From contig NZ_CP192292.1 of the NCBI RefSeq assembly GCF_050596425.1, positions 1,287,987 to 1,351,986 of the forward strand: a stretch of DNA of 64,000 nucleotides. Direction: 5' to 3'. Position numbers and translations under genes: made by a program. The stretch comes from Fusibacter sp. JL216-2 (lineage in GTDB: Bacteria; Bacillota; Clostridia; Peptostreptococcales; Acidaminobacteraceae). Below are positions 6,792-64,000 of the stretch, piece by piece. The notes beneath the pieces are model-generated. The model made no database searches. It was not told where the DNA came from and saw only the letters and a list, made by a program, of their open reading frames with translations. How positions within the stretch are numbered: the stretch's first letter is position 1; every line of letters begins with the position of its first letter.

Positions 6792-6930
6792 GGGATGGTA
6801 AATCCTACGGTCTTACTAAGATATAATTTAATTCGATATGTAAAAAAATGAAATAGAATACTTTTATTAGACTTTATCAGTCCAACTCACTTATAATGAC
6901 GATGATATTTGTAAAGAATTGATCTTAACT

Positions 6931-7048
6931 GAGCGACATGCAAAATATCATTCAAGGAGCCTCGGTCTACACTATATAGATATATAAGAATGAAAAATTC
7001 TATATAAGGCATGGCGAAGGCATAGATCTGTAGTTTTGCTAGTGCCTG
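6931..7048. repeat. nested-palindromic intergenic repeat, copy A (about 118 bp)
   Basis: Left arm GAGCGACATGCAAAATATCATTCAAGGAGCCTCGG, core TATATAGATATATAAGAATGAAAAATTCTATATA, degenerate right arm. Lies 45 bp upstream of the DUF523 gene. Confidence 0.7.
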
Positions 7049-7092: not shown

Positions 7093-7647
7093 ATGAAGCG
7101 AAGCAAGGAAATAATATTGGTGTCGCACTGTATTTTGAATGCCAATTCTAAGGTTGAGGGTCTGAGCGAATATTCAGGCATGGTTAAAGAACTTGTAAGT
7201 TTAATCTTTGAAAGAGGGGCTGGCCTGGTTCAATTACCGTGTCCTGAAATGCATGTTTATGGAATCAGAAGGTGGGGACATGTCAAAGAACAGTTTGACA
7301 CACCGCATTTTAGACAGGAATCAAGAAAAATTCTGAGCCCCCTTGTAGATCAAGTTGAAGACTACATAAAAAACGGATACCGCGTTCTGGCCGTGATTGG
7401 TATAGACGGGAGTCCAAGTTGTGGGGTCTTTAAGACTTGTAGCGGCAACTGGAGGGGGGAGCTTTCAACAAGTGAAGGCCTTGAAGACATGCTCAGTCAT
7501 GTTTCATTGATTGAAGAACCTGGTGTGTTTATGGAAGAGCTTCAGAACCTCTTTATAAATAGAAAACTGGATATACCATTCATCGCTCTTGACGAAATGA
7601 ATATGTCTAGTGGCATGGAAAAAATACAAAGTATACTTAGATCCTAG
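7093..7647 (+). CDS. DUF523 (TudS-like, putative [4Fe-4S] thio-nucleobase desulfidase family) protein
   Basis: VSHCILNANSKVEG and LPCPE...GIDGSPSCG cysteine motifs typical of DUF523. Confidence 0.6.
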   Translation: MKRSKEIILVSHCILNANSKVEGLSEYSGMVKELVSLIFERGAGLVQLPCPEMHVYGIRRWGHVKEQFDTPHFRQESRKILSPLVDQVEDYIKNGYRVLAVIGIDGSPSCGVFKTCSGNWRGELSTSEGLEDMLSHVSLIEEPGVFMEELQNLFINRKLDIPFIALDEMNMSSGMEKIQSILRS

Positions 7648-7657
7648 GGGGAAGAAA

Positions 7658-8479
7658 ATGTTACAGCAATTAAAAAAAGTGGGTTTGTTTGCATTGATCA
7701 TGGCATGTGTTTTGACGCTTGCCGCTTGCACGGGTTCAAATAGTGAAGTGTCGGCGAGTGGGAACGAAAATCAAGTCGAGGACCTGTCCTGGTCAAAGAT
7801 TGAAGAAAAGAATGAATTGGTGGTAGGTCTATGTGCAGCATATCCACCATTTGAATCAAGAAATGAAGAAACAGGAGATCTTGAAGGCTTTGACATTGAT
7901 CTTGCAACAGCTCTTGGTCAGGCTTTAGAAACACCTGTGAAGGTTGAAGACGCTGAGTGGCAAGCCCTTCTTGGGGGACTAAATAAAGGTGATTTTGACG
8001 TTTTGATCACTTGCATGTCTAAAAAAGAAGCTGCTGTTGAAAATGTGAACATGAGTGATGTATATTACAATTTGAACGATGTCATTGTTGTTCGAGAAGG
8101 CTACGACGCCATTCAATCAAAAGACGATCTAAAGGAAAAAACAGTGGGCGTTCAGCTTGGATCGGGTAGTGAGCAGATCGTTGATAAAATGGAAGGTCTT
8201 AAAGAAATCAAACGATACAATTACAATCCAGAAGCCTTTATTGATTTAAAACATGAAAGACTTGATGCGGTTGTTGTTGGTTATGCGTATGCAGTGAACC
8301 ATATCAAAAAAGAAGGTGGCTTTGAAGTTGTCGACACACCTGTTGAATCAGCGGAAATCGTTATGGTTATGCGTCATGGAGAGGATGCTTTGACTGAGAA
8401 AGTGAATGAAGCCCTTCAAGCTGTTAAAGAAAACGGTGCCTATGACCAAGCCATCAGCAAATGGCTAGAAGTGAAATAA
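7658..8479 (+). CDS. polar amino-acid ABC transporter substrate-binding lipoprotein
   Basis: Lipobox LAACTG and SBP_bac_3-like sequence. I chose the start at the ATG after a GGGGGAAG RBS. Confidence 0.85.
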   Translation: MLQQLKKVGLFALIMACVLTLAACTGSNSEVSASGNENQVEDLSWSKIEEKNELVVGLCAAYPPFESRNEETGDLEGFDIDLATALGQALETPVKVEDAEWQALLGGLNKGDFDVLITCMSKKEAAVENVNMSDVYYNLNDVIVVREGYDAIQSKDDLKEKTVGVQLGSGSEQIVDKMEGLKEIKRYNYNPEAFIDLKHERLDAVVVGYAYAVNHIKKEGGFEVVDTPVESAEIVMVMRHGEDALTEKVNEALQAVKENGAYDQAISKWLEVK

Positions 8480-8532
8480 TGAATTGGAATAAGGGTGAAC
8501 CTTGGTTTGCCCTTTCTTTATTGTAAGGGAGC

Positions 8533-9201
8533 TTGCCATTGAAATTTCATATAATATTTGATAATCTCACATATTTATTAAGAGCAACAGGTGTTACGGT
8601 GAAAATTACATTGTATGCATTTATCGTGGCAGTATTCTTGGCCTTTTGCATAGGCACTTTGAGATCAAGAAAGAATTTAGCACCGATTATAAGCTGGATG
8701 CTTTCATTTTACATAGAAGTTTTCAGGGGCACGCCACTGCTTATACAGTTGTTTTTTATATACTATGGTTTGCCATCTATTGGACTCAACATGTCCAGTT
8801 TTACAGCCGCTGTTGTGGGCTTGTCCTTAAACAGTGCCGCATACATGGCTGAAATAATACGGGCCAGTCTGTTATCGGTGGATAAGGGGCAGGAAAAAGC
8901 GGCTTATGTCCTGGGGTATTCTAATTTACAAACTCTGTTTCACATTATATATCCTCAAGCCATTCGCATAGCCCTTCCATCACTTATGAATGCATTTTCA
9001 ACCTTGCTCAAGGAGAGTTCTTTAATTTCTGTCTTGGCCATTACTGAGTTAACCCGTAGTGGTCAACTGATCTACACAAGGACGTATAGGGCTTTTGAGA
9101 TTTATTTGACACTGGGACTGATATATTTTCTGCTGACATACTCAGTTTCACAAATATCCAAACAAATTGAAAAGCGAGTCAGTATAGCCTACGAAGATTA
9201 G
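8533..9201 (+). CDS. amino-acid ABC transporter permease (His/Glu/Gln/Arg/opine family)
   Basis: EAA-loop permease motifs. TTG start behind AAGGGA. Confidence 0.8.
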   Translation: MPLKFHIIFDNLTYLLRATGVTVKITLYAFIVAVFLAFCIGTLRSRKNLAPIISWMLSFYIEVFRGTPLLIQLFFIYYGLPSIGLNMSSFTAAVVGLSLNSAAYMAEIIRASLLSVDKGQEKAAYVLGYSNLQTLFHIIYPQAIRIALPSLMNAFSTLLKESSLISVLAITELTRSGQLIYTRTYRAFEIYLTLGLIYFLLTYSVSQISKQIEKRVSIAYED

Positions 9202-9210
9202 GAGGTTTTC

Positions 9211-9945
9211 ATGAGGCGTAACCCCGTTTTATCCATACAGGGCTTGAATAAAAGCTTTGATGACCTCCATGTCTTGAAGAATGTTGATATGGAAATTTAC
9301 AGTGGAGACACAGTGGCCATCATCGGTTCAAGTGGTTCTGGAAAAAGCACACTATTACGATGTATATCAAACCTAGAACAAGCCGACAAAGGGTCTATTG
9401 TTTTAGCGGGCACTAGTATTGATGCCCTAAGGTGCGATAGAACCCGGAGTCAAAAGGTGGGGATGGTCTTTCAGCACTTTAATTTGTTCCCGCATTATTC
9501 AGTGGTTGAAAACATTTATAAACCGCTTGTAGCTGTACAAAAAATGCCAAAAGATGAGGCCATTAAAATTGCAAATCAACTCCTTGAAAAAGTAAGATTG
9601 ATGGACAAGACAAGTGCATTCCCACAGCAGTTATCGGGTGGGCAACAGCAACGTGTTGCCATAGCCCGCGCCCTTGCTATGAAACCAGAAATAATGCTAT
9701 TTGATGAACCCACATCAGCCCTTGATCCAGAACTCAAAGGCGAAGTTTTGCAAGCAATACGAGACTTGACCCGTGAAGGCATTACAATGATTGTTGTGAC
9801 CCATGAAATGGAGTTTGCTAGGCAAGTGGCTGATCGAGTTGTATATATGGATGAAGGCAAAGTTATTGAAGAAGGCGAAACCGAGACGTTTTTTATGTCC
9901 CCTCAAAATGAGCGGACTGTTCAGTTTTTAAACAAGTCATCATAG
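9211..9945 (+). CDS. amino-acid ABC transporter ATP-binding protein (GlnQ-like)
   Basis: Walker A GSSGSGKST, signature [15 protein letters not shown], Walker [12 protein letters not shown]. Confidence 0.9.
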   Translation: MRRNPVLSIQGLNKSFDDLHVLKNVDMEIYSGDTVAIIGSSGSGKSTLLRCISNLEQADKGSIVLAGTSIDALRCDRTRSQKVGMVFQHFNLFPHYSVVENIYKPLVAVQKMPKDEAIKIANQLLEKVRLMDKTSAFPQQLSGGQQQRVAIARALAMKPEIMLFDEPTSALDPELKGEVLQAIRDLTREGITMIVVTHEMEFARQVADRVVYMDEGKVIEEGETETFFMSPQNERTVQFLNKSS

Positions 9946-11252: not shown

Positions 11253-11340
11253 AAGCGTCTTGTAAAATATCATTCAATAATCCTCGTCATAAGATAGTTA
11301 GATATTTAAGAAATTAAAATTCCATATAAGCTATGACGGG
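11253..11340. repeat. nested-palindromic intergenic repeat, copy B (truncated, left arm plus core)
   Basis: AAGCGTCTTGTAAAATATCATTCAATAATCCTCGTCATAAG...TATTTAAGAAATTAAAATTCCATATAAGCTATGACGGG. Sits in the gpx / marR intergenic gap. Confidence 0.65.
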
Positions 11341-11341
11341 T

Positions 11342-11779
11342 CTAATCTTCATTCATGGAGCAAAGCACCTTATCAAGGTACTTCTTGAGCATAATAAGAT
11401 CCTCAATGTCGCCCTTATAATCCCCAAGCAGTTGGTCGGGCACATCTACAATTTGCTCTTTTAAAAGAAGCCCTTTTTGAGTCACTTCAACAATAACCTG
11501 CCTGTCGTCATGAGGACTTCTGTATTTATTTACATAGTCCATGGAAACCAGTTTTTTTAGAACCGGAGTCAATGTTCCCGAATCTAGGTGAAGTCTCTTT
11601 CCAAGTGATTTGAAATCAATCTTTTCTTCCTCCCAGAGCACAAGCATGGCAACGTACTGGGTATAGGTCAGATTATGCTTTGACAATAGGGGCTTATAGA
11701 GTTTTATAATTTCTCTGGACAAAGCATACAAGGGAAAGCACAGTTGATTGTCTAGTTTTAGTTTTTCAAAGTTATTCAT
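11342..11779 (-). CDS. MarR-family transcriptional regulator, OhrR-like (N-terminal redox Cys)
   Basis: Winged-helix MarR fold with a conserved N-terminal Cys (NQLCFPLYA). Start at the internal ATG behind AAGGTGG. Confidence 0.75.
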   Translation of the reverse strand: MNNFEKLKLDNQLCFPLYALSREIIKLYKPLLSKHNLTYTQYVAMLVLWEEEKIDFKSLGKRLHLDSGTLTPVLKKLVSMDYVNKYRSPHDDRQVIVEVTQKGLLLKEQIVDVPDQLLGDYKGDIEDLIMLKKYLDKVLCSMNED

Positions 11780-12059
11780 AAACCCACCTTTTGATTTTGT
11801 TAAATTTAATTGAGCTAAATCAAAATACATTTTTATTATATACCTTTCAATGAATTTGTCAAACTCATTTTACGAGATGTGTATGAATCTCTTCTGCCTA
11901 AACGTGGTCTTTATGTTTCTTAGGTGTGGAATCTGGTGTGCCTGCAATGAATAAGGCGTTCATCAAGTGGGTATTTGTAGTGGGTGTCCTTTAATAAAGG
12001 TTGACAAGTTTTAAAATAAAGCCTAATATAAAATTGACCCCCTAGGGGAGGGGTATCTT

Positions 12060-12173
12060 GAGCGGTACTAAAACTATCAAGCACCCTTGCTATACCATAT
12101 ATAGATATTTAAGAATCAAAAATTCTGTATATGGTATAGCAAGGGTACAGATCTGTAATTTTGCAAGTCGCTC
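12060..12173. repeat. nested-palindromic intergenic repeat, copy C (most complete right arm)
   Basis: CCCTTGCTATACCATATATAGATATTTAAGAATCAAAAATTCTGTATATGGTATAGCAAGGG ... ATTTTGCAAGTCGCTC (reverse complement of the copy A/D/E left terminus). Lies upstream of the CoADR gene. Confidence 0.75.
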
Positions 12174-58293: not shown

Positions 58294-58971
58294 GTGAAGC
58301 TTAATGACAGGTGGTTGGGCAGTGAAGGATGTGATGGTTTGATAAAAGCGACGGGAATTATTCTGACTGGAGGACGGGGGCGACGTCTTAATGATAGGGA
58401 CAAGGCCCTTATAAACTATAAGAATATGCCCTTTCTTTTTCATGTTCTTGAAGCCCTGAGGGGGTTTGAAGAAATTATCATTGTCACATCAGAAAGAAAC
58501 TATGAAAGCCACCTAAACAGTATAGAAGCTTGGAAAAGAGGTCACTCTTCTTATATAAAGGGAAGGCAAAACATTGAGGTTGTAAAAGACATAATACCTG
58601 AAAGTGGACCAGTCGGTGGAATATACACAGGCCTCTTCACTGCCATGTATGACAGAGTTTGTATTCTTTCTGTTGATACCCCCATGGTGACACAAAGCTT
58701 GGTTCGTTATCTTATTGATGTGGACAGCGGTAATGGCAAATCTGTTACACTGCCCTGCGCAGATGGAAAGGTTCATCCGCTGATTGGAGTTTATTCCAAA
58801 TCACTGCATGGCGATTTTAAGAAAGCTCTAGACTCCAGACAGCTTAAACTCATGAGGGTGATAGAAAATTTCCATCTAGACCTTATAAGACAAGAAGATC
58901 TGATGGAAAAAGGATTTTCAACTAAAATATTTGCCAATATCAACACCCAAAATGACCTCGATCGCATCTAG
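58294..58971 (+). CDS. mobA: molybdenum cofactor guanylyltransferase
   Basis: GIILTGGRGRRL nucleotide-binding motif. GTG start 8 nt after AGGAG. Confidence 0.75.
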   Translation: MKLNDRWLGSEGCDGLIKATGIILTGGRGRRLNDRDKALINYKNMPFLFHVLEALRGFEEIIIVTSERNYESHLNSIEAWKRGHSSYIKGRQNIEVVKDIIPESGPVGGIYTGLFTAMYDRVCILSVDTPMVTQSLVRYLIDVDSGNGKSVTLPCADGKVHPLIGVYSKSLHGDFKKALDSRQLKLMRVIENFHLDLIRQEDLMEKGFSTKIFANINTQNDLDRI

Positions 58972-58982
58972 GTCATTTTTTT
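58948..58982 (+). terminator. intrinsic terminator overlapping the mobA stop codon
   Basis: AATGACCT...AGGTCATT followed by TTTTTTT. Confidence 0.6.
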
Positions 58983-58986
58983 ATAT

Positions 58987-59073
58987 GAGCGACTTGCAAT
59001 ATCATTCAAGAATCCTCATTGCACCCTCTATAGATATTTGCGAAACAACAATTGTGTATCGGGTACGACGAGG
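58987..59073. repeat. nested-palindromic intergenic repeat, copy D (left arm plus diverged core)
   Basis: GAGCGACTTGCAATATCATTCAAGAATCCTCATTGC...TACGACGAGG, immediately after the mobA terminator. Confidence 0.6.
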
Positions 59074-59434
59074 AAAGACAAGAACTTTTAAAGAGTCTGT
59101 TTGAGCGAAATCTCAGCGGGCTCTTTTTCTGTGCGGTTTGATCAGTGGTATGACACAAGGGCTTAAGAGTTCGTCTTGTGTTGATTGGAGGATATGCAAG
59201 GTTTGCATAAAAATACAACTTTCGCATAAAGCTATACAAAATATGTAAATTGCAAAACAAATGTGGCTAGGAAAGCGTTTTCGTCTAATTTGAAGGAAAG
59301 AAATAGCTTTTTAGCAAAAATAAATTCAAAAAAAATTAAAAAAACTATTGAAATAAAAAAAGACATATAGTATAGTTAATAAAAATTATGAATAAAAATT
59401 CACAAAAACTTATAAAAAAACGGAGGGGTATGAA

Positions 59435-60265
59435 ATGAAAAAATGGTTTGTACTTTTAATGACAACAATTCTTATGGTAACAGCTTTTACAGGGTGTGCT
59501 TCACAAACGCAAACAGAATCGGAAGGGCAAGAAACAGAAACCAAGCAAGTGATTAAGGTCGGGCTTGATGACGCTTATCCGCCTTTTGAATACCATGACG
59601 AAGCAACGAATGACTTGATTGGTTTTGATATTGATTTTGCCAAGGCTCTTGGAGAAGAAATGGATGCAGAAATTGAGTTTGTTCCAACCGCGTGGGATGG
59701 TATTTTCAATGGTCTGAATACTGGGCAGTACGATATGATCATTTCCTGTGTGAGCATTACTCCAGACCGTATAGAAGCTTTTGAAATGACCAAGCCATAT
59801 TTGGCAAATGGCATTGTCATTGTTTCAGCAACAGGGGGGCAAGAAGCAGCAACCATTGAAGATTTAGCTGGTAAAAAAGTAGGTGTTCAGCTAGAAACCA
59901 CAGCAGATATTGCTGCTAAAAAGTTTATTGAAGAAGGCTATGATCTCTCTTTATCGCAGTTTGACTCTGTTATGGAGGCGTTTGCTGCCCTAAAGGGTGG
60001 TTCAATAGAATATATTCTGGTTGATAGTTCAGTGGGAGGCTTTTATATTTCAAATGATCCAGAATCCTTTGAAATCACATCAGGACTATTGTCAAACGAA
60101 CCCATTGGCGTGAGTATTGCCAAAGGCAATGAATCTTTGGCAACAAGCGTGAATGAAGCCATTGCCTCATTACAGGAAAGTGGAAAAATGACTGAGATTT
60201 CTCAAAAATGGTTCTCAGCAGACTTTGCAACAAAAATTGATGAAGAGATTAAGGTGATTGAGTAG
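59435..60265 (+). CDS. polar amino-acid ABC transporter substrate-binding lipoprotein
   Basis: Lipobox FTGCASQ. Paralog of the 7658 SBP. Confidence 0.85.
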   Translation: MKKWFVLLMTTILMVTAFTGCASQTQTESEGQETETKQVIKVGLDDAYPPFEYHDEATNDLIGFDIDFAKALGEEMDAEIEFVPTAWDGIFNGLNTGQYDMIISCVSITPDRIEAFEMTKPYLANGIVIVSATGGQEAATIEDLAGKKVGVQLETTADIAAKKFIEEGYDLSLSQFDSVMEAFAALKGGSIEYILVDSSVGGFYISNDPESFEITSGLLSNEPIGVSIAKGNESLATSVNEAIASLQESGKMTEISQKWFSADFATKIDEEIKVIE

Positions 60266-60287
60266 GCAATTTAAAAGACACTTCAAA

Positions 60288-60316
60288 GTGACCTGCCCCG
60301 TGGTGGGTCACTTTTC
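60288..60316 (+). terminator. intrinsic terminator after the amino-acid SBP gene
   Basis: GTGACC-TGCCCCGTGGTG-GGTCAC followed by TTTTCT. Confidence 0.65.
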
Positions 60317-60321
60317 TAATC

Positions 60322-60437
60322 AAGCGACTTGTAAAATGGCATTCAAGAATCCTCATCATAAAATATATGGATATTTAAGAATCAAACGTTCTATATATGT
60401 TATGACGAGAATGTGGATATGGAATTTCGCAAGCGCC
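60322..60437. repeat. nested-palindromic intergenic repeat, copy E (full length)
   Basis: AGCGACTTGTAAAATGGCATTCAAGAATCCTCATCATA...ATATTTAAGAATCAAACGTTCTATATATGTTATGACGAG...AATTTCGCAAGCGC. Lies between the SBP terminator and the permease gene. Confidence 0.75.
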
Positions 60438-60509
60438 TGAATCAAGAAGTTCATATATCATATTCAAATCAGATCATAATTATAGGATTATCAAACGGGA
60501 GGACAATCC

Positions 60510-61169
60510 ATGCTAAATCCAGTACAGATTGAAGCCATACTAAAAGGAACAGGATACACCATCGTCATAGCCGTTGTCGCAGTACTTGTGGGTATTGTAT
60601 TCGGCATGGTTGTAGCGATTGGAAGAATATCAAAAAACAAACTTGTAAATAAAGTGGCCTGGATCTATGTATGGTTTTTTAGAGGCACACCGCTCTTATT
60701 ACAGCTTTTTATGATTTTTTATGCCATGCCCCTCATCATGAAAGATGTTTTTGGAAGACCCTTTCCAATGGAGCCCCTGGTGGCTTGTTTTATAGCATTT
60801 TCATTGAATTCGACAGCCTATCTTGCAGAGTTTTTCAGGGCAGGCATTGAGTCGATTGACAGTGGACAGATGGAAGCAGCCAAGGCTCTTGGAATGAGTT
60901 ATAACCAAGCTATGTTTCAAATAATTATACCGCAATCATTCAAAAGGTTACTGCCATCGGTTGGCAATGAGTTTATCATGCTGATTAAAGACACGTCGCT
61001 GGCATCAACGGTTGCTATATCTGACCTGCTCAGAACCACAAAGACAATGAGTAGTTCTTCGGGAAAGTGGATCTACTATGTTTATGCGGCAGCTGTTTAT
61101 CTGGTCTTGACATCGATTATACAATTTGGGTTTGAAAAGTTAGAGAAGAAGGTGGGCGTGTATGAGTAA
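60510..61169 (+). CDS. amino-acid ABC transporter permease
   Basis: His/Glu/Gln/Arg/opine permease family; EAA loop. Confidence 0.85.
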
Positions 61170-61935
61170 GGGAACTAAAGAAATGATAAAGGTTACAAAT
61201 GTCCATAAATATTTTGGAGATCTTGAAGTCTTAAAAGGTATAGATTTTTCTGTGGCAGAGAGTGAAGTTGTTTGTGTCCTCGGGGCAAGTGGTTCTGGAA
61301 AGTCCACCCTGCTTAGATGTTTGAACCATCTTGAAAGAATCACATCGGGAGAAATATATATTGATGGAGAACTGGCAGACAAACGTCAGGCAGATAAAGA
61401 CCTTATTGACATCCGACCAGAGCATGCCCAGGTTCTTTGTATGAAGCTCGGAATGGTCTTTCAAAGGTTTAACTTGTTTCCCCATTTAACAGCTGTTGAA
61501 AATGTCATGAAGGCGCCTATGCTTGTAAAAAAAGTTAAGGAGTCACAGGCGCGTGCCCATGCTATGGAACTTCTTAAAACAGTTGGCCTTGAAGACAAAG
61601 CCCACGAGTATCCTTCCAGACTCTCGGGAGGCCAGCAGCAAAGGGTTGCCATTGCAAGAGCCCTTGCGATGAAACCTAAAATTATGCTCTTTGACGAACC
61701 CACTTCAGCCCTTGATCCCGAACTTGTTGGCGAGGTGCTTGAGGTTATGAAAAAATTGGCTCAAGATGGAATGACCATGATTGTTGTCACCCATGAGGTG
61801 GGCTTTGCAAGAGAAGTGGGAGATAGGGTTGTATTTATGGATGGTGGCGTGATTTGTGAGGAAGGAAGCCCATCGGAAGTTATTGACAATCCAAAGGAAG
61901 AGAGAACGAAAAGCTTTTTTAGCAAAATACTATAA
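61162..61935 (+). CDS. amino-acid ABC transporter ATP-binding protein
   Basis: Walker [10 protein letters not shown], signature [15 protein letters not shown]. Confidence 0.9.
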
Positions 61936-62202
61936 GTGTCAAATTGTAGTGATTTCAAGGCTTGTATCAATACAGTTCTAATTATGTTGACTGAAATTAA
62001 ATAATTTCTTGTAATTTCGACAATTTTCGCGTATAATAATATTAGAAATTGTTGAGATTGGGTACGAAATAGGAAATATGTACTCATAGAAATCGATCAA
62101 ACATTTAAATTATATATGTCATTGCAAAATTACTTTACACATCACACCACATATTGCAATCATCGCAGCAACCCGATTTCAGCGATTGAATGAAACGAAA
62201 CC

Positions 62203-62232
62203 AAAACCTCCATCTTAAGATGGAGGTTTTTT
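62203..62232 (+). terminator. strong intrinsic terminator in the 575-bp intergenic region
   Basis: AAAACCTCCATCTT-AAGATGGAGG followed by TTTTTTT. Confidence 0.8.
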
Positions 62233-62510
62233 TATGATAAAGGCTCTTCTCTTCAATGATATTTCACAAGTCGCTCATGTATTAACTTTTTATCTCCTTT
62301 ATAAAAAGTTTATTATTTCATCCCTTATGGAAAGACGCCCCTGTAAATTGGGTATAAACCTAATAATGTAAGAAAAGCAGGTCAGAATCTATCAATTTAG
62401 TTGAAATTTCAAGTGTTATAAACTTATAATGTTGTATAGGGACACTAAATAAAATTGAGCATCAGACAAAACTGTAAATCGGGGAATATGTTTCGGGAGT
62501 GGAGATCATA

Positions 62511-64000
62511 ATGAAGTTAAGGGATGTATCATTAAGAACAGCGGTTATATTACCGACAGTGATAATTATGTTAGCCATTTTGGCTCTTTTTGTCGTGCTT
62601 AACACAAGGGACTATGAGTTTCTAGCAGAAGAACAGGGGTCAAGAATACTGGATGCCTTATATAGGAATACGGAGCAGCGATTAAGCGCTCTTCTTGTTG
62701 AGCCGATGCGGGCCAATGCATTTTATAAGGATTATATTACCAGAGAAATATTGTATGACTATCAGGATCTTGAAGAGGTCGAAAAATATACACTGGATTT
62801 CATGACACAGCTCAGAGAGACCCTCCCTCAAGTCAGTGTGATCAGCTATGGAGATGAGCTTGGAAATTACTTGGGCTACAGATTAAACGAAGACGATATG
62901 TATGGTCTCATGTTGAAAGATGCGCGTACAAATTTTGACTTGAACATATATGCAGGCCAAACCATTGATACAGAACTGCTTGCAGGTTTTAAAGATTATG
63001 ATCCAAGAACCCGACCTTGGTATTTGCCTGCAAAACTTGATCCGACAGATCGGTGGTCAGATGTCTATGTAAATTATGATGAAAAAATGGAACTTGCTAT
63101 CACAACATTTGTTCCCTTTTATAATGATAAAGAAGCGTTTACAGGTGTCGTTGGCATTGATGTGAAGTTAAACATGATCAATGATTTTCTCATCGCAGAG
63201 GATATGAAAGGCAATGGCGTCATTTATATAGTTGATGAAGACTGGAACATTTTGTCTCATTCTCTTAATACAGATTTTGTAAAAGTTATCGAAGGCGACC
63301 CGCCAAGCGCAGTCATGCTTTCCGCTTTGGAGGCAGAAAATCCTCTGATCCGCCAAAGTGCGGAGTTTATACGAGATCAAGAGACCAAGTCAGGAGAGGT
63401 GCAACAAATTTATGTTGACGGGCAGAGGTATTTTACTATGGTTTCTCCTTTGAAAGACCCTGAGGGGCTTGACTGGAATATTGTTGTGACCATACCTGAA
63501 AAAGATATTCTTGGAGCTGTCAAAGAGAGACAAAACACAACCCTAAGAGTGATTTCACTGTTTCTTGTTGTCGCTATGGTTGGTGCCATGTACCTATTGT
63601 CAAAAATAACAAAGCCCATTCTACAAAGTTCGGAAGCGGCACTGCAATTGTCAGAAGGGGACTTTGAAACAAAACTGGATATAGATGGTTTGCAGTTGTA
63701 TGAGACAAAAGAGCTGGTTATTGCTTTTAACAACATGTCTGACAAATTGAAAAATTATTTTAGCAGAATAAAGAAAAGTGAAACCAAATATAGGTCGTTA
63801 ATAGAAAATGTTGATGACATGATATACAGCATTTCAAAAGATGGCATATTCTTATCAATGAATAACAGTTTTGAAGAGGCCCTTGATATTAAAGCGGATA
63901 GCCTTATTGGAAAGCCCTTTACTGAAATTTTTACAAGTGATGATGCGATGAACTACTGGCTTAAAATGTATCATGAAGTCTTACAGAGTAAGGAAACGAT
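62511..64000 (+). CDS. membrane sensor protein (TM - dCache-like - TM - HAMP - PAS ...), 3'-truncated at window end
   Basis: GGAG RBS then ATG. The frame stays open to the window end. Second TM around aa 350, HAMP-like region, PAS (NVDDMIYSISKDGIF...). Confidence 0.6.
   Translation, partial: MKLRDVSLRTAVILPTVIIMLAILALFVVLNTRDYEFLAEEQGSRILDALYRNTEQRLSALLVEPMRANAFYKDYITREILYDYQDLEEVEKYTLDFMTQLRETLPQVSVISYGDELGNYLGYRLNEDDMYGLMLKDARTNFDLNIYAGQTIDTELLAGFKDYDPRTRPWYLPAKLDPTDRWSDVYVNYDEKMELAITTFVPFYNDKEAFTGVVGIDVKLNMINDFLIAEDMKGNGVIYIVDEDWNILSHSLNTDFVKVIEGDPPSAVMLSALEAENPLIRQSAEFIRDQETKSGEVQQIYVDGQRYFTMVSPLKDPEGLDWNIVVTIPEKDILGAVKERQNTTLRVISLFLVVAMVGAMYLLSKITKPILQSSEAALQLSEGDFETKLDIDGLQLYETKELVIAFNNMSDKLKNYFSRIKKSETKYRSLIENVDDMIYSISKDGIFLSMNNSFEEALDIKADSLIGKPFTEIFTSDDAMNYWLKMYHEVLQSKET

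Follow-up and report, generated by a model that had tools for sequence, protein, structure and literature searches.

Five intergenic repeats in a Fusibacter genome are probably copies of a lineage-specific 118-bp MITE

The DNA analysed here, a 64-kb stretch of the Fusibacter sp. JL216-2 genome (hereafter, the window), contains five intergenic loci that share a nested palindromic architecture. A sequence-only reading of the window had offered two explanations for them, either a MITE/REP/BOX-like mobile element or a shared cis-regulatory/RNA hairpin module. Which of these are the repeats? Our analysis makes it very probable that all five are copies of a 118-bp non-coding MITE, which appears to be lineage-specific and hosted by marine Fusibacter. 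Such a MITE is an ordinary sort of genomic parasite and belongs to a known class. A literature search found no earlier account of a Fusibacter MITE family or of any repeats in Fusibacter, and no sequence kinship to any described family was found.

The five loci are real and homologous, as had been proposed. A profile built from them retrieves each locus from the 64-kb window with nhmmer E-values between 4.6e-26 and 1.3e-38, all on the + strand, and gives a weak sixth match on the - strand at 62241-62276. Repeat finding carried out without a prior profile recovers the same family independently (repeat families D1 and D3). A degenerate pattern with 20 specified bases matched four copies in the window, versus 0.00 expected in shuffled sequences, and the mean column identity in an alignment of the five loci is 72%. 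The count of five is correct for the main loci, to which a sixth fragment, restricted to the left end, has to be added. The copies and the adjoining DNA discussed below are as follows.

6931-7048, + strand: copy A, full-length, 118 bp, GAGCGACATG...CTAGTGCCTG (profile search, alignment)
11253-11340, + strand: copy B, 88 bp, right ~30 nt absent (profile search, alignment)
12060-12076, + strand: GAGCGGTACTAAAACTA, flanking DNA outside the element (conspecific comparison)
12077-12173, + strand: copy C, retained part (comparison with contigs L001 and L003)
58987-59077, + strand: copy D, left end and interior intact, right terminal repeat gone
60322-60439, + strand: copy E, full-length, 118 bp (profile search, target-site duplication)
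62241-62276, - strand: fragment F, left-end-only remnant, GAGCGACTTGTGAAATATCATTGAAG... (profile search, inspection)

The search for further copies, which had been suggested as a check, was positive in metagenome contigs. The family pattern occurs there in 39 stretches, mostly from the LQAG, LQAI and LQAJ assemblies, which nhmmer and flank clustering resolve into 19 distinct loci: the five window copies, 13 others of the same species, and one on JDSF01000131.1, an unrelated contig. A twentieth copy is found in a related species, on contig L052. In the window and the metagenome contigs taken together, the family thus numbers at least 19 distinct loci plus one fragment. The LQA* contigs come from metagenome assemblies of an enrichment of Wadden Sea sediment (PMC5763382). 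They are 98.6-99.6% identical to the window and are therefore regarded as conspecific with the window strain; contigs LQAJ01 and LQAG01 encode a protein identical to the product of the ORF at 11342-11830. Scanning GTDB species representatives with the family pattern yielded four chance matches only, one in a coding region of S. mitis and three in unrelated marine genomes. No other species' GTDB representative carries copies that match the pattern.

Seven copies or fragments map to one 214-kb contig, LQAJ01000012.1 (loci L013, L021, L029 and L037). Copies tend to pair at distances of 2-8 kb, on this contig as well as at L019 and L036, and the density in the window is six copies or fragments per 64 kb, which suggests local clustering.

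An alignment of 20 sequences with 60-nt flanks revealed that the element has sharp ends, as homology begins and ends abruptly and the flanks are unrelated. The canonical element, GAGCGACTTGCAAAAT...ATTTTGCAAGCGCCTG, is 118 bp long (observed range 113-128), and its consensus runs from GAGCGACTTG to CAAGCGCCTG. It is organized in nested segments, given here as consensus positions.

1-6 and 113-118: variable termini
7-16 and 103-112: outer stem, CTTGCAAAAT / ATTTTGCAAG
17-28 and 91-102: 12x12-nt internal loop
29-50 and 69-90: 22-bp inner stem
51-68: 18-nt A/T-rich loop

The terminal inverted repeats (TIRs), GAGCGACTTGCAAAAT and ATTTTGCAAGCGCCTG, are 16 nt long and imperfect. When GAGCGACTTGCAAAAT is compared with the reverse complement of the right end CAGGCGCTTGCAAAAT, 12 of the 16 positions match, and the inner 10 match perfectly. 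Conservation is highest in these inner 10 bp, CTTGCAAAAT: pairwise identity ranges from 0.86 to 0.90 in the outer-stem/TIR columns, versus 0.67-0.81 elsewhere. Loops are not more conserved than stems (0.78 versus 0.72, p 0.29). The outer inverted repeat described previously is therefore present, but its right terminus is ATTTTGCAAGCGCCTG in the consensus, not ATTTTGCAAGTCGCTC. Copy C and L029 alone have a right terminus that perfectly complements the left one (CAAGTCGCTC); in both, the outermost 7 nt of the two ends are exchanged relative to the other copies. Such an arrangement would result if the interior were inverted between the outer-stem repeats. The swapped-end copies L029:11777-11892 and L001:2488-2604 both feature clean target-site duplications; to judge from these, both the normal and the swapped configurations seem to have transposed.

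The GC content of the consensus is 35%, versus 40.8% for the window. All copies are intergenic. The ORFs that overlap them are short and non-conserved, and the element is non-coding and carries no transposase, in line with what had been noticed from the letters alone.

Copies had been sorted into near full-length (A, C and E) and truncated (B and D) ones, an assignment that applies to all but copy C, the true left end of which is missing. Copy A is located in the predicted 5' UTR of a TudS-like desulfidase/amino-acid ABC operon, with a promoter-like site at 6868-6897 and the start codon at 7093; its flanks (AACT versus ATTA) do not form a recognisable target-site duplication. Copy B is inserted between the stop codon of an OhrR-like marR gene (11342) and the ribosome-binding site and start of gpx (11236). 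Both genes are on the - strand, and copy B is consequently antisense to the marR-gpx transcript. Its orthologue in the related species (L052:1184-1301) is full length and is flanked by AACT/AACT. An alignment extending copy B to full length into the 3' end of marR was discarded, as this stretch is conserved marR coding sequence in element-free relatives.

Copy C is found in the 5' UTR of the CoADR-rhodanese gene (promoter-like site 12001-12029, start 12216). Relative to the conspecific contigs L001 and L003, it has lost the true left 17-20 nt along with ~150 bp of upstream flank, through a single 170-bp deletion at 12076/12077 in the window strain. The sequence GAGCGGTAC (12060-12076), which had been taken for the left TIR of this copy, is not part of the element; it is flank that the deletion has joined to it. 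The true left end in the conspecific contigs is TAAGCGCTTGCAAAATATCATTCAAG, and the intact copy in L001 is flanked by AGATT/AGATT. The termini are of the swapped type, the right end being CAAGTCGCTC. The ~170 bp of the CoADR 5' UTR that the LQA versions have and the window lacks (L001:2605-2752, - strand; L003:35-184) hold an internal direct repeat, GAAAAGCCAGCTAGGAAAAA / GAAAAGCCAGCTATGAAAAG. A GC-rich palindrome, CCCCCTAGGGGAGGGG, follows the CoADR -10 box closely on its downstream side, at 12037-12056. The palindrome is also conserved in L048, a relative devoid of the MITE, and could be an operator or the 5' stem of the CoADR transcript.

The window strain has lost the right 34 bp of copy D through a deletion between AGGAAAG direct repeats, while the orthologues in LQAJ and LQAG are intact and measure 116 bp. 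The left end of copy D lies 8 nt past the mobA terminator hairpin (58950-58978). Similarly, the left end of copy E lies 8 nt past a terminator-like hairpin (60287-60314). Copy E is flanked by a perfect 4-bp duplication, AATC, at 60318-60321 and 60440-60443, and separates a cystine-type substrate-binding gene from a permease gene (start 60510). Fragment F adjoins the terminator of the ABC operon (62203-62230). The window contains two paralogous polar amino-acid (cystine-type) ABC transporter operons, at 7610-9945 and 59435-61935; their ATPase genes share 74% identity over 242 nt (repeat family D2), and both operons carry MITE copies.

Have these elements moved? Both of the checks that had been suggested, for target-site duplications and for empty orthologous sites, gave an affirmative answer. 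Perfect direct repeats of 4-6 bp abut both ends in eight of the 15 copies with both ends intact (ATTT twice, AATC, AATA, AGGTT, AGTTA, AGATT and GGAATC). Among mismatched left/right flank pairs, which served as control, 4 bp are reached in 4.8% of the cases (binomial p 1.3e-7). The flanks of three more copies match at 3/4 positions. Direct repeats are lacking in 6/15 intact-ended copies, and where they occur their length varies from 4 to 6 bp. By their position and frequency, we read the flanking repeats as target-site duplications (TSDs).

The relatives represented by contigs L048-L051, in which MarR is 85% identical, keep both the CoADR-marR-gpx gene order and the CoADR promoter, and copies B and C are both absent from the orthologous sites, the flanks of which are too diverged for exact junctions to be read. 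In L052 (86% identical), copy B is present at the same position beside the gpx ribosome-binding site, and copy C is absent. Since L052 has B but not C, B was in place before the window lineage and L052 diverged, and C is the younger of the two.

Copies are 64-92% identical to each other (mean 77%), and all five window copies are common to the conspecific population. Because of this divergence and sharing, the family is considered old, with no recent activity; no recent transposition is visible among the copies, the closest pair being 92% identical. The family is apparently dormant and eroding by small deletions.

Prokaryotic MITEs have been defined as elements under 500 bp that are AT-rich, form a stem-loop, and have TIRs and direct repeats, the latter decaying with age (PMC10969869). 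Against this definition, the canonical element is 118 bp long and without transposase, and its TIRs, at 16 nt, fall within the range of about 4-30 bp and make up the most conserved columns. Direct repeats flank 8/15 copies, besides the AACT/AACT pair in L052. Copies are dispersed in AT-rich intergenic DNA at 19 or more loci plus a fragment, next to unrelated genes, and filled and empty orthologous sites exist side by side, B and C being absent from L048-L051 and B alone being present in L052. From the composite label given to the repeats earlier, MITE is the part to be retained, on account of TIRs, TSDs, dispersal, empty sites, AT-richness and lack of coding capacity; REP and BOX have to be dropped.

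The features above are consistent with the following scenario. A transposase supplied in trans by an insertion sequence would bind the terminal repeats, and the element would be inserted by staggered cuts into AT-rich intergenic DNA, giving rise to the 4-6 bp TSDs. The T-tail just after an intrinsic terminator would often be the target. Copies residing within transcripts, either in 5' UTRs (A and C) or between cistrons (B and E), would add a stable hairpin, and could incidentally affect mRNA stability or translation. We infer mobilisation in trans, and effects of individual copies on the expression of adjacent mRNAs are possible. No dedicated host function is indicated for the element.

The stability of the hairpin varies among copies. 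Folding each copy, as had been recommended, gave a mixed outcome: C and E fold better than shuffled sequence (for copy C, MFE -44.6 kcal/mol, z -8.9), but A, B and D do not (z -0.9 to -1.4). RNAalifold run on a MAFFT alignment recovers the outer stem only, owing to indels, and stem pairs were counted explicitly after projecting the copies onto the consensus. Two-sided changes were found at pairs 29/90, 33/86, 35/84, 36/83, 40/79 and 42/77. Watson-Crick pairing in the inner stem amounts to 82% within copies, versus 72% when arms are combined across copies, and the within-copy level was reached in 0/5000 permutations. Covariation of the arms may reflect the existence of subfamily master copies, selection on the hairpin during transposition, or arm-to-arm correction. 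It may also mean that the hairpin has a role of its own, either in transposition or for the host. Covarying arms are not required by a pure 'TIR only' MITE model.

Position relative to terminators is also uneven. The left end of the element, and never the right one, follows a terminator-like T-tail in 8-9 of 18 copies, namely D, E, L013, L026, L019a, L019b, the L021 fragment, L042 and possibly L035; terminators with long loops were identified by eye from the alignment. The T-tail is 5-10 nt away from the element (18 nt in L035). Two of these copies have a terminator on the other side as well.

The + orientation reported earlier is indeed shared by all five window copies, but not by fragment F, which is on the - strand, nor by the family at large. 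The + strand of the window is probably the leading strand, in view of a GC skew of +0.118 and of the location of nearly all genes on this strand. Across the 19 loci, orientation relative to GC skew is 12:7, which is not significant, and no replication-strand bias is apparent; the uniform orientation in the window is hence a local feature.

The main competitor of a MITE in the initial reading was a shared cis-regulatory element, either an RNA leader/hairpin or a long operator, that would coordinate sulfur, cysteine and redox genes, in this case those for the TudS-like desulfidase and its ABC transporter, gpx, CoADR-rhodanese and the cystine-type ABC transporter. Its appeal comes from the window, in which every copy adjoins a sulfur, cystine or redox gene, A and C are found in predicted 5' UTRs downstream of sigma-70-like promoters, and the stems covary. 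The gene context had been described correctly, apart from the gene between B and C (11342-11830), which encodes an OhrR-like MarR regulator; the window neighbours are accordingly the TudS-like desulfidase and ABC operon, gpx, the OhrR-like MarR, CoADR-rhodanese and the cystine-type ABC operon. The 13 other loci tell a different story, as they flank functionally unrelated genes, among which are those for radical SAM, F420-ligase-like, GNAT, ROK, GGDEF-HD, Na:alanine symporter, MatE, YtxH, Cache receptor, Ppx/GppA, histidine kinase, response regulator, ABC, methyltransferase, NUDIX and DUF952 proteins. The sulfur/redox context in the window is therefore regarded as coincidental. Several copies are located between two convergent genes or immediately behind a terminator. 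Copy B is in antisense orientation to the transcript that contains it, the genes and the CoADR promoter are conserved in relatives that have no element, and copies C and D carry within-species deletions. A structured RNA family would be expected to show fixed orientation, strand-specific pairing, association with a functional gene class and cross-species conservation; we found both orientations, equal folding of the two strands, unrelated neighbours and empty sites. The MFE is similar on both strands, with 41 versus 56 G-U pairs, and the consensus stems have 27 G-T and 19 A-C mismatches. Given equal folding energies and the absence of a G-U versus A-C asymmetry in these counts, neither strand is favoured as RNA. 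Rfam searches are concordant, as no family reaches the gathering score in the whole 64 kb, which contains no tRNA, rRNA or riboswitch match. Unrelated neighbours elsewhere, strand symmetry and empty sites in relatives led us to reject a cis-regulatory role, which we regard as having hardly any probability, and with it a sulfur/redox regulon or riboswitch-like leader.

Two other alternatives start from the hairpin. The element may once have been mobile and then have been kept because its hairpin, behind terminators or within operons, serves as an mRNA 3'-end protector, back-up terminator or insulator, in the manner of REP or SPRITE. The location of about half of the copies directly downstream of intrinsic terminators in one orientation, stable hairpins such as that of copy C, and the maintenance of pairing by compensatory changes would all fit such domestication. 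Within the species, however, copies have been deleted or shortened, and nothing in this points to constraint. For A, B and D, folding is no better than that of shuffled sequence, the orthologous sites of relatives work in the absence of the element, and no T-tract follows either stem, so that the element itself is not a canonical terminator. Moreover, the post-terminator position is explicable by a preference for AT-rich targets combined with tolerance of insertion, and the same argument has been made for pneumococcal repeats (PMC3049150). We hold domestication to be improbable. Even less credit is given to a REP/BIME-like or IS200/IS605-derived palindromic element (PATE) moved as single-stranded DNA by a Y1 enzyme (RAYT/TnpA). 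Hairpin recognition by such an enzyme would explain both the covarying arms and the fixed orientation beside terminator hairpins, and the palindromy over the whole length with compensatory changes between arms, the left-end proximity to T-tails and the presence of all five window copies on the leading (G-rich) strand point the same way. Yet Y1 transposition does not produce flanking 4-6 bp direct repeats, and these, together with true TIRs, weigh against the mechanism. PATEs lack TIRs and TSDs, insert 3' of a fixed tetra- or pentanucleotide and are strand-specific relative to replication; the Fusibacter element has TIRs and TSDs, variable left flanks with no conserved 5' target tetranucleotide, and a 12:7 orientation ratio. 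Likewise, REP/BIME elements are GC-rich palindromes of 20-40 nt, present in high copy number and in alternating arrays without TSDs, whereas the copies described here are 118 bp, AT-rich, single units with TSDs.

Returning to the MITE, a further reading concerns which part of it is functional. The whole hairpin, not the TIRs alone, could be the functional unit, a proposal based on the co-evolution of the arms, the two transposed copies with inverted interiors and the left-end proximity to terminators in roughly half of the copies. It would imply either that transposition recognises terminator hairpins or T-tracts in an orientation-specific manner, or that the host has co-opted the hairpin as an RNA or DNA structure behind terminators. 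We consider it doubtful, if somewhat less so than domestication.

Among known systems, the closest are the prokaryotic MITEs, such as Correia/NEMIS of Neisseria, QMITE of Coxiella and MITEAba12, which share with the Fusibacter family size, TIRs, TSDs, AT-richness, intergenic location, multiple copies, a stable stem-loop and the lack of a transposase (PMC10969869). The Fusibacter family differs in the variable length of its TSDs (4-6 bp), in its host, an environmental clostridial genus, and in that no parent insertion sequence was found for it. The search for a parent looked for terminal repeats, alone or as a pair enclosing a larger element, and for long repeats among loci; no additional ones and no parent with matching terminal repeats were found in the window and about 145 kb of conspecific sequence, and plasmid and viral-contig collections gave no parent-element matches.

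RUP (107 bp, close in size), BOX and SPRITE of Streptococcus pneumoniae and S. suis are likewise AT-rich, hairpin-forming intergenic repeats with TIRs and TSDs, and are enriched downstream of genes or between convergent genes, clustered, old and of low mobility (PMC3049150). They are almost confined to S. pneumoniae and S. mitis, BOX occurring also in S. suis (PMC3049150). The Fusibacter element is set apart from them by its host, which belongs to a different phylum-level lineage, and by their published range, and no sequence similarity is evident; the element lacks the modular structure of BOX and the terminator-like T-tract of SPRITE. The clostridial host also led us to discard the streptococcal BOX, RUP, SPRITE and RepSU1 repeats as candidate identities. 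Integron attC sites appear to be excluded as well, as neither RYYYAAC/GTTRRRY cores nor a cassette array is present.

ERIC/IRU of enterobacteria resembles the Fusibacter element in being an imperfect palindrome over its whole length of ~120 bp, found in neighbouring mRNAs and in both orientations. Clear TSDs and evidence of transposition are not known for ERIC; in contrast, TSDs and empty sites are demonstrable for the Fusibacter element. REP/BIME sequences mobilised by RAYT are also extragenic palindromes often located after genes (PMC2817692). REPs are 20-40 nt long, occur in hundreds of copies and in alternating BIME arrays, and have no TSDs (PMC2817692); neither their size nor the arrays nor the absence of TSDs applies to the Fusibacter element.

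The family is one more MITE family, from an under-studied clostridial lineage. Its value is mainly for annotation, as it accounts for several long intergenic regions and 5' UTR hairpins in the Fusibacter genome, and the local association with sulfur/redox genes should not be taken as a regulon. The deletions in copies C and D provide a strain marker that separates the window strain from the Wadden Sea population. The bias of one end towards terminators and the covarying arms are modestly interesting with regard to target choice and structure upkeep in MITEs, and neither goes beyond what is on record for small bacterial repeats.

Two observations concern other parts of the window. A 1.47-kb stretch at 61936-63409 contains no ORF of at least 80 aa, only fragmentary short ORFs, and Rfam gave no match there even at E 0.1. 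A gene in decay or a non-coding region missed by annotation may account for it. In the OhrR-like MarR gene (11342-11830, - strand), the longest ORF encodes 162 aa, versus 145 aa in the NCBI annotation and 144-147 aa in relatives. Judging by these lengths, the real start codon is probably located ~17 codons downstream of the first ATG.
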